Shown: piece after piece, positions 3,025-3,296 of the stretch
Layout of the letters: the number at the start of each line of letters is the position of its first letter
Numbering within the stretch: the first letter of the stretch is position 1
Translations under genes and position numbers: made by a program
Source of the DNA: a virus
Lineage: Duplodnaviria > Caudoviricetes
Strand: one strand, 5' to 3'
DNA: 60,239 bases
IMG/VR virus record: IMGVR_UViG_3300008255_001543
Span: 1-60,239 of that record
Notes under the pieces: model-generated
What the model saw: only the letters and a program-made list of their open reading frames with translations
Told to the model about the DNA's origin: nothing
Databases searched by the model: none

Positions 3025-3296
3025 TGTATAGAGTAGTTGGCTTAGAGGCAGCCATCTTTAATGAGTAGAATCATCTCTCCTTGTGAAAATCGTAATCGTT
3101 TAATGACTTTTTAATTGACGATGAAATCAAAGCCCGGTAGCCCTTAAGCTATCCTGAAGCTGAGAAATTTGCGTGGAGGTAAGTCGAGATTGACCTAGTA
3201 AGAACTTTGGAATTGACCAAAGCATAGGGCAAATGGGATGCGTAAAAGTACTACCCCGTTGAACCGTTCTTTAAGCGTAGTAGCACGCTCTGTACA
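3025..3296 (+). ncRNA. Structured RNA containing a 23S rRNA H43/H44 (uL11-binding GTPase-associated centre) mimic with an internal ~205-nt insert
   Basis: GTTGGCTTAGAGGCAGCCATC-TTTAATGAG ... GCGTAGTAGC; closing helix TGTATAGAG/CTCTGTACA. Confidence 0.75.

Follow-up and report, generated by a model that had tools for sequence, protein, structure and literature searches.

A family of phage RNA elements with a free-standing copy of the 23S rRNA GTPase-associated center, encoded among tRNA genes

The stretch of DNA analyzed here, called the window, is a 60-kb IMG/VR virus record from an uncultured phage (IMGVR_UViG_3300008255_001543; 60,239 nucleotides [nt]). Between two of its tRNA genes lies an element, at positions 3024 to 3297, that is almost certainly the gene of a stable noncoding RNA. 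Its core corresponds to positions 1046 to 1113 of 23S rRNA, i.e., to the GTPase-associated center (GAC), and it is closed on itself and carries a fourth arm; our very high confidence covers this whole structural part of the interpretation. The features of the locus are listed below, with 23S positions in Escherichia coli numbering, helices 42 to 44 of 23S rRNA abbreviated H42 to H44, and R1 standing for a covariance model of the family described further on.

2943-3019, plus strand: tRNA-Thr(GGT), the 5' neighbor of the GAC-mimic element (ARAGORN; Rfam tRNA, 67.8 bits)
3025-3033, plus strand: 5' strand of the closing helix, TGTATAGAG, in place of the top of 23S H42, forming 9 pairs with 3288-3296, including one G-U (R1 model alignment)
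3035-3057, plus strand: H43-like hairpin, equivalent of 23S 1058-1080 (20/21 identity to E. coli rrlH)
3036-3056, plus strand: GTTGGCTTAGAGGCAGCCATC, equivalent of 23S 1059-1079 (from the sequence)
3042-3050, plus strand: H43-like loop TTAGAGGCA (1065-1073), in which A3044 is A1067 and G3048/C3049 are G1071/C1072
3057-3065, plus strand: TTTAATGAG (from the sequence)
3058-3066, plus strand: junction TTAAT plus GAGT (1082-1090), in which A3060/A3061 are A1084/A1085 and A3064 is A1088
3067-3270, plus strand: variable arm of 204 nt, closed by AGAA (3067-3070) and TTCT (3267-3270) (R1 model alignment)
3194-3228, plus strand: arm module CCTA-GTAAGAA-CTTTGG-AATTGA-CCAAAG-CA-TAGG, two stacked helices around conserved loops (arm blastn, compensatory changes)
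3271-3274, plus strand: linker TTAA joining the arm to H44; most members have TTTG or TTTA here (R1 model alignment)
3275-3287, plus strand: H44-like hairpin GC-GTAGTA-GC (1091-1100) followed by ACG (1101-1103), in which A3279 is A1095
3275-3284, plus strand: GCGTAGTAGC (from the sequence)
3288-3296, plus strand: 3' strand of the closing helix, CTCTGTACA (from the sequence and the R1 model alignment)
3310-3381, plus strand: tRNA with anticodon GTC (Asp), the 3' neighbor of the element (Rfam tRNA, 49.6 bits; no ARAGORN call)

Positions 3036 to 3056 are identical at 20 of 21 sites to E. coli 23S 1059-1079 (GTTGGCTTAGAAGCAGCCATC; rrlH of strain MG1655), the sole difference being A1070G. Because G1070 is present in some true 23S genes (e.g., L331 and L363), the window 21-mer matches those at 21/21. 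It occurs only once in the window, and none of 100 dinucleotide shuffles contained a match, even at 3 mismatches. An Rfam scan found no further rRNA sequence elsewhere in the 60-kb record. An earlier note on this DNA, made without database searches, had stated the 20/21 match and listed the strings given above, all of which were located where it had placed them. The match held against the actual rrlH gene, and the equivalents of U1060, A1067, G1071/C1072, and A1095 that it had pointed out are all present in the element. Its reading of the element as an RNA that copies the uL11/thiostrepton domain, closes on itself, and lies in a tRNA array is supported, and so is the position between tRNA-Thr and tRNA-Asp (by ARAGORN and Rfam for the former and by Rfam alone for the GTC tRNA); its remark that no other rRNA lies nearby proved true of the whole record.

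The element belongs to a large family. The exact window 21-mer was found in 19 IMG/VR contigs, and looser pattern scans yielded at least 118 contigs, 86 contigs, at least 119 contigs (3'-anchored scan), and 22 metagenome contigs. Pooling the scans gave at least 259 elements in 258 loci, with at least 213 distinct sequences from uncultured phages; chance matches of a bare 15-mer in coding DNA (26 of 205 occurrences) had been discarded because the 3' motif was absent, and one locus (L006) was a true 23S fragment rather than a family member. Nearly all members share one plan. The 5' half consists of the first strand of a closing helix, the H43 copy, a junction (A/C)UUUAAAGAGU, and the variable arm, and the 3' half consists of UUU(G/A), GCGUAAUAGC, a purine at 1101, CAC, and the second strand of the closing helix. 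The window element follows this plan, lying in a virus record between two plus-strand tRNA genes on their strand, as expected for the family. It was assigned to a subclass (24 of 150 elements) with one base fewer at 1057/1081 and G at 1103, and its junction (3058-3066) is one base shorter than that of the main class.

Membership was evaluated with R1, a covariance model built from 32 aligned members with the window excluded from the seed (E-values are rough). R1 matched window positions 3024 to 3297 over its full length (model positions 1 to 159 of 159) with 64.6 bits (E of about 8e-17). It also matched E. coli 23S 1046-1113 over its full length with 55.2 bits, and the true 23S fragment L006 with 41.1 bits. 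The Rfam large-subunit (LSU) rRNA model aligned only locally to the core of one member (L049), with 26.1 bits, below its cutoff of 50. A single copy of the element was present in 4 of the 5 complete jumbo phage genomes checked. A first pattern found no member in the metagenome scan, and none of the 22 members found with a second pattern was close to the window. Two loci recovered as close relatives through a neighboring gene lacked the element and any tRNA.

Four phages in culture also carry the element:

Pseudomonas phage UNO-G1W1: between tRNA-Trp and tRNA-Arg, R1 95.7 bits, with a "hypothetical protein" annotated over it on the opposite strand
Pseudomonas phage pf16: between tRNA-Asn and tRNA-Pro, R1 91.9 bits, unannotated
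Xanthomonas phage XacN1: after a 2'-5' RNA ligase gene, R1 87.9 bits, unannotated
Aeromonas phage 4_4572: before tRNA-Met, R1 46.0 plus 15.7 bits, unannotated

The "hypothetical protein" annotated opposite the UNO-G1W1 element (L441:2569-2676) probably reflects a structured RNA miscalled as a protein gene. In six loci (L189, L192, L194, L196, L176, and L203), the H43 3' side and the junction are swapped for a small extra hairpin (e.g., CAGA-CGAAAG-TCTG), and these variants retain R1 scores of 21 to 58 bits.

Rfam 15 gave no match to the window element at gathering scores or at E-values up to 10, and none to the element in 19 related loci. Full-text literature searches that combined GAC, uL11, helix 43/44, and rRNA mimicry with phage terms found no description of the family. 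A 2017 survey of 224 RNA motifs (PMC5737381) mentions neither rRNA nor 23S in its main text, its supplementary files being outside this check, and a term search of the main texts of the pf16 and XacN1 genome papers found none of the words rRNA, 23S, and ncRNA. This is thus a very large phage RNA family for which we found neither an Rfam entry nor a literature description. The earlier note, which had proposed the Rfam scan, had likewise been unable to name a described family.

Covariation among members supports the GAC secondary structure. We tested the 32-member alignment against a supplied structure consisting of the GAC and the four-pair foot of the arm. Of the cells, 88.5% were paired, compared with 63.2% in shuffled alignments, and the covariation score was 0.637, compared with 0.157 after shuffling (0 of 500 shuffles reached the score, and controls with a slid structure gave at most 0.176). 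Compensatory changes were found in 15 of 23 pairs, including all four closing pairs of the arm, which covaried and were paired in 93% of cells. Among 113 main-class members, each pair of the closing helix from 1053:1106 to 1049:1110 occurred in all four Watson-Crick types, with 79 to 92% of members paired. The pairs 1057:1081 (A-U 89, C-G 18, G-C 2, and U-A 1), 1058:1080 (U-A 49, G-C 39, A-U 17, and C-G 5), and the loop-closing 1082:1086 (U:A 53, C:G 33, A:U 13, and C:A 10) also covaried in this set. The earlier note had asked for homologs and covariation; the closing helix, the H43 base, the arm foot, and 1082:1086 all covary. The folding energy of the whole window element was no better than that of shuffled sequences (z = -0.01), a measure that carries no information for RNAs with many tertiary contacts.

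The non-canonical features of the GAC are retained in the same 113 members. U1060 and U1078 are kept unpaired (U/U in 109), 1056/1103 is non-Watson-Crick (A/A or G/A), and 1061/1077 is U-A, A/A, or G/A. A1084 is retained in 112 and A1085 in all 113, A1088 is also kept, and the pairs 1054:1105 and 1055:1104 are mostly G-C in the family. An excerpt of PMC1919483 describes two A-minor triples at the hinge between H42 and H43-44, which in our conversion to E. coli numbering are G1054-C1105/A1084 and G1055-C1104/A1085.

Variation in the family is concentrated at 1061, 1067, 1068-1070, and 1095-1097. In a 3'-anchored sample of 104 distinct sequences, with up to 6 substitutions permitted in H43, G1059, U1060, G1063, U1066, G1071, and C1072 were invariant (104/104), A was found at 1067 in 88 and at 1070 in 83, G was found at 1068 in 84, and 1061 varied freely. 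Of the H44 loop bases, A1095 is A in 102 of 113 members, G1093, U1094, and A1098 are invariant, and 1096 and 1097 vary freely. Invariance is partly built in at 1062-1076, which the search patterns fixed in the first sets, and at 1091-1092, 1094, and 1098-1101, which the 3' filter fixed throughout. According to PMC6239185, positions 1061, 1067, and 1069 are not conserved and make no hydrogen bonds to the GAC fold, A1070 and A1095 make no tertiary contacts, and the tertiary fold is required for uL11 binding.

How much of the domain is copied can be read from the closing helix, whose pairing fades beyond about 8 to 10 pairs (113 main-class members). The stalk protein uL10 binds the lower part of H42. 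Because the pairing fades where it does, lower H42, and with it the uL10 site, is not copied, and the stalk binding considered in the earlier note does not fit a mimic that ends at the top of H42. For the same reason, the extent of the copy is roughly that of the free-standing 60-nt GAC to which uL11 binds (PMC6239185, in part).

The arm is always placed between U1090 and G1091, and its length varies across the family from 24 to 346 nt, the shortest arms being plain hairpins. The earlier note had described the element as split by an insert of about 205 nt at the H43-H44 junction and closed by AGAA/TTCT. The closure stood, but the site is in the 5' strand of H44, and "split" does not describe an arm that is a constant feature of a large family with a covarying closing helix. 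Part of the window arm is homologous to the arms of seven other loci (L131, L109, L230, L308, L233, L289, and L086; blastn E-values of 2e-9 to 5e-3). In these 8 sequences, the module at 3194-3228 shows compensatory changes in both stacked helices and conserved loops GUAAGAA and AAUUGA; we found no support for structure in the rest of the window arm. Another module, CCCC-tetraloop-GG-UAAG, is shared by 22 of 128 arms and has a covarying inner pair. The shared arm module, in the form GNCA-CCCC-(tetraloop)-GG-UAAG-GNC, ends 12 nt before the 3' end of the arm (e.g., in L008, L042, and L124). Window positions 3248-3260 (TGCGTAAAAGTAC) resemble the H44 hairpin, and GTAAAAGT is shared with L109 and L131; as a second H44-like string, this stretch was set aside, since we estimate the chance of so loose a match in the arm at about 1 in 12. 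A search for other rRNA pieces was likewise negative apart from the sarcin-ricin hairpin: exact 9-mers of E. coli 23S were shared by at most 4 of 128 arms per place, compared with at most 3 after shuffling.

A sarcin-ricin look-alike was found in a long-armed class of six distinct members (L049, L061, L072, L228, L248, and L440), with arms of 310 to 349 nt. All six carry (U)AGUACGNRAGGA at one alignment position. The loop matches E. coli 2654-2665 at 12/12 positions in L228 (2181-2210, minus strand) and at 11/12 in four others. Its six-pair stem is paired in 42 of 42 cells, shows compensatory changes in 6 of 6 pairs, and has a covariation score reached by none of 500 shuffles. The claim rests on this shared position and covarying stem, and not on the raw count of matches: 12-mers with at most 2 mismatches occur in 4 arms, whereas the reverse strand gives 2 and shuffles average 1.5, a difference that is not significant by itself. 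The window has 2 such matches (at most 2 mismatches), compared with 1.07 expected by chance, and so none beyond chance; an S-turn reading of AGTAC...GAAC at 3253-3265 was unsupported and dropped. The GAC and the sarcin-ricin loop constitute the factor-binding site of the ribosome (PMC8661411 and PMC2330231, each in part). The sarcin-ricin hairpin in the long arms therefore places look-alikes of both halves of this site on one RNA.

The genomic context ties the element to phage stable RNA genes. All 899 tRNA and transfer-messenger RNA (tmRNA) genes in 150 loci lie on the same strand as the element, and such a gene lies within 50 nt of 53 of the 150 elements and within 200 nt of 73. The stored loci of 145 of the 213 elements contain a tRNA gene (five or more in 88), and those of 8 contain a tmRNA; a tRNA or tmRNA lies within 100 nt on at least one side in 87 and on both sides, as in the window, in 20. 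The tRNA array of the window spans positions 172 to 5139, with a tmRNA downstream (6568-6926). After the tmRNA follows a further feature:

6967-7008, plus strand: strong terminator-like hairpin (6967-6998) of 13 pairs plus a T run (consensus scan only)

The stable-RNA operon to which the element belongs likely ends at this hairpin. A promoter scan of the window remained at chance level (14 found, 13.6 expected). No recurrent protein partner was conserved near the element among the 213 loci. The largest neighbor cluster, a metallophosphoesterase, occurs in 11 of the 213, and a kinase-phosphatase-RNA ligase fusion and a CCA-adding enzyme are also found; the metallophosphoesterase gene of the window (5416-6036) falls outside the 11-locus cluster. 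A uL11 gene was found neither in the window nor in any of 5 complete (97 to 100%) jumbo genomes that carry the element.

Two aquifer RNA libraries with different study codes contain contigs covering 3089-3269 (1 mismatch) and 3125-3262 (0 mismatches, flanked by adapter sequence). These contigs hint at expression. The earlier note had suggested that RNA data might reveal splicing of the insert; no joint was seen and the arm was retained, the coverage being partial (arm only). Matches of tRNA size in RNA libraries at 2723-2765 and 2963-3007 were set aside, as they have 1 to 8 mismatches, the contigs mostly diverge, and they probably represent tRNAs of other organisms.

The phage RNA has the secondary structure and the non-canonical features of the bacterial 23S GAC (E. 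coli 1051-1108), including the junction UAAnGAGU, the H44 loop GUARNA, the covariation at 1082:1086, and the 20/21 identity in H43. It differs from the rRNA domain in being free-standing, in being encoded among phage tRNA genes, in its closing helix of 8 to 10 covarying pairs unrelated to the H42 sequence, and in its lack of lower H42 (the uL10 site). The arm and the UUUR linker sit exactly between U1090 and G1091 and turn the three-way junction of rRNA into a four-way junction. Position 1101 is a purine in the phage RNA and a pyrimidine in nearly all true 23S genes; it is A in the filtered sets, where the 3' filter partly fixes it, and G in pf16 and UNO-G1W1. When bacterial and archaeal genomes were searched with the junction pattern, all of the 120 matches listed were true 23S, reading ...AAAGAGUGCGUAAUAGCUCAC... 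without an arm. At 1087-1090, bacterial rRNAs commonly read GAGU, E. coli GAAA being a variant. The window lacks the uninterrupted H44 (GAGU-GCGUAAUAGC), the two strings being 208 nt apart. A bacterial 23S gene or fragment (RF02541) was rejected as an identification of the element, as it is not continued by the neighboring rRNA helices (H41, lower H42, and H45), there was no LSU match in the record, the flanking genes are tRNAs, and the closing helix is unrelated to H42.

We also compared the element with known RNAs that resemble parts of the translation apparatus. A mimic in a ribosomal-protein leader (e.g., L10_leader) was rejected: there was no such Rfam match, the neighbors are tRNAs, and the record has no uL11 gene. 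The leaders of ribosomal-protein mRNAs, such as those bound by uL1 and uL10(bL12)4, are similar to the phage RNA in that an off-ribosome RNA copies the rRNA site of a protein; as described in part of PMC10931766, they regulate ribosomal-protein operons in cis and copy the site only loosely. The phage RNA, in contrast, is near-exact, lies in a stable-RNA operon, and is not flanked by a ribosomal-protein gene. Our literature searches found no leader mimic of the uL11 site. RNAs of the T4 rnaC/rnaD and T5 RNA1 type are tRNA look-alikes of phage tRNA clusters. With the RNAs of such clusters (tRNAs and tmRNA), the phage GAC mimic shares the niche, the strand, the nature of a part or look-alike of the translation apparatus, and probably the processing; those RNAs copy tRNA, whereas the mimic copies a domain of the large rRNA. 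ROOL and GOLLD are, to our knowledge, not considered to resemble rRNA. They are similar in being large structured RNAs, often phage-borne, near phage tRNA genes and with no assigned function (PMC5737381), but neither family matched the window or the 19 related loci in Rfam.

The mechanism that we favor is a mimic acting off the ribosome. The RNA would be transcribed together with the tRNA array and released by RNase P and the 3'-end enzymes that process tRNA-Thr and tRNA-Asp, with 3' processing of tRNA-Thr freeing its 5' end, and would then be trimmed back to the closing helix. It would adopt the GAC tertiary structure and capture a host component that reads the GAC fold, most likely free host uL11. 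As a sponge, it might alter those functions of the host translation apparatus that depend on uL11; alternatively, it might form an RNA-protein particle in which the arm has a second function specific to the lineage. From sequence evidence, we propose host uL11 as the partner with middling confidence. The invariance of the fold-building bases, together with some variability at A1067 and A1095, leans toward recognition of the fold, of the uL11 type. We favor uL11 because the bases that build the fold are invariant and those that contact factors are less so, because the copy spans about the free-standing domain of 60 nt, and because the window and the five complete genomes yielded no phage uL11 gene, so that a uL11 partner would have to come from the host.

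Several observations speak against this proposal. A1067 and A1095, which contact factors and do not build the fold, are still 85 to 90% conserved, and six long-armed members carry the sarcin-ricin look-alike; both point to GTPases, or to enzymes that attack the factor site, and not to uL11. Part of the apparent conservation of the core stems from the search patterns. A sponge would be limited to free or newly made uL11, as uL11 on mature ribosomes would not be titrated. Over its full length, the window arm is no more stably folded than shuffled sequences (z = 0.04), and the RNA-library contigs, possibly DNA carry-over, cover the arm only and are uninformative on the RNA ends.

Two alternatives to uL11 capture start from the factor site. 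The RNA could be a decoy substrate, made at tRNA-like levels, that soaks up host-defense or competitor enzymes that modify or cut the GAC (or, for members with long arms, the sarcin-ricin loop), much as anticodon nucleases are countered by the tRNAs and RNA-repair enzymes of phages. The element resides in tRNA arrays; the few recurrent neighbors are RNA-repair or tRNA-maturation enzymes, the XacN1 element adjoins a 2'-5' RNA ligase gene, and 6/6 long-armed members also copy the sarcin-ricin loop. An excerpt of PMC8661411 describes a toxin, Tre23, that ADP-ribosylates H44 of the GAC at 1095-1098. The invariance of G1093, U1094, and A1098 (1094 and 1098 being fixed by the filter) and A1095 in 102/113 would suit such a target, but 1096 and 1097 within it vary freely. 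An enzyme decoy must outnumber ribosomes, no neighbor occurs in more than 11 of 213 loci, and we know of no defense system that targets the GAC during phage infection; we regard a decoy as unlikely. The RNA could instead be a portable factor-binding site that, alone or with uL11, binds EF-G, the EF-Tu ternary complex, or the tRNA elbow, with the factors sequestered or held for a phage purpose and, in some lineages, the other half of the site supplied by the arm. Munishkin and Wool reportedly found in 1997 that EF-G is bound by oligonucleotides representing each of the two domains in isolation. The covarying stem that bears a sarcin-ricin-like loop in 6/6 long-armed arms agrees with this, given that the GAC and that loop jointly form the factor site (PMC8661411 and PMC2330231, each in part). 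The loop is nonetheless confined to 6 of about 213 distinct members and missing from the window, A1067 is replaced by G, C, or U in 16 of 104 sequences, and the uL10/bL12 stalk site that recruits factors is not copied; we consider a factor-binding site distinctly improbable. The broader idea that large phages carry a portable piece of the factor site, a free-standing GAC linked in some lineages to a sarcin-ricin loop within one RNA and produced together with their tRNAs, either as a ribosome decoy that shields translation from host or competitor enzymes attacking this site or as a means of capturing translation GTPases, is possible but tentative; if true, it would be the first virus-encoded mimic of an rRNA domain and a new class of RNA-based counter-defense.

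Other readings give the core no partner of its own. The GAC fold could be a mere scaffold, sturdy and stabilized by protein, like the tRNA shape in other phage RNAs, with the activity in the arm. Arms are indeed highly variable in length and can be grouped into several conserved classes that have covarying modules of their own, and the RNA libraries showed only the arm. Given shortest arms that are plain 24-nt hairpins, however, the core must be able to function alone, and its conservation equals that of real rRNA, well above the needs of a scaffold; we consider this reading very unlikely. Scarcely credible is the notion that the arm is an intron or the element an inert 23S leftover, possibly from a gene with a mobile intron at 1090. 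Excising the arm and TTTG from main-class members would yield ...AAAGAGT-GCGTAATAGC..., the usual bacterial H44, and the arm is preceded by U and the linker ends in G (99/113), the bases found at the boundaries of group I introns. In the window, however, the insert and linker end in A, and RF00028 and other intron families were unmatched in 2940-3400 at E-values up to 10, in a scan that did detect the real group I intron of the window (35491-35697). No intron was matched in 4 relatives (E-values up to 0.1) or in 15 (gathering scores), arms of 24 nt are too short to self-splice, and reads showed no joint, the RNA-library contigs retaining the arm over their partial coverage. A leftover is contradicted by a closing helix that is unrelated to H42 and yet covaries, unlike an inert fragment, and by the lack of other rRNA in the record.

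Phages are known to encode tRNAs, tmRNA, RNA-repair enzymes, and a few ribosomal proteins. Our literature searches found no earlier report of a near-exact, self-folding copy of an rRNA domain. A very common family under rRNA-grade constraint presumably meets a conserved host partner, and since pf16 and UNO-G1W1 can be cultured on harmless Pseudomonas hosts, binding, deletion, and pull-down experiments are feasible. Their outcome would tell whether these viruses tamper with uL11-dependent translation control or shield the factor site of the ribosome. For structural biology, the family would provide a naturally occurring version of a classic RNA fold with a four-way junction.

The stable-RNA genes around the element showed further peculiarities. 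In one locus (L002:6271-6932), a family member directly adjoins a permuted tmRNA (Rfam tmRNA_permuted, 73 bits), and a tmRNA lies next to the element in L049 and L072. In the window, positions 3391-3536 encode a tRNA-like RNA that has an acceptor-type stem of 7 pairs and is interrupted internally by a long insertion (minimum free energy z = -2.14), which neither ARAGORN nor Rfam called. Four segments (1003-1073, 1619-1687, 2858-2928, and 3310-3381) match the Rfam tRNA model at 31.7 to 49.6 bits with no ARAGORN call and may be aberrant tRNAs or tRNA look-alikes. With introns allowed, ARAGORN called a tRNA-Pro(AGG) with a 68-nt intron at 6382-6546, directly 5' of the tmRNA. The group I intron at 35491-35697 (96.2 bits) lies just 3' of an open reading frame (33583-35109) that matches DNA polymerase families.

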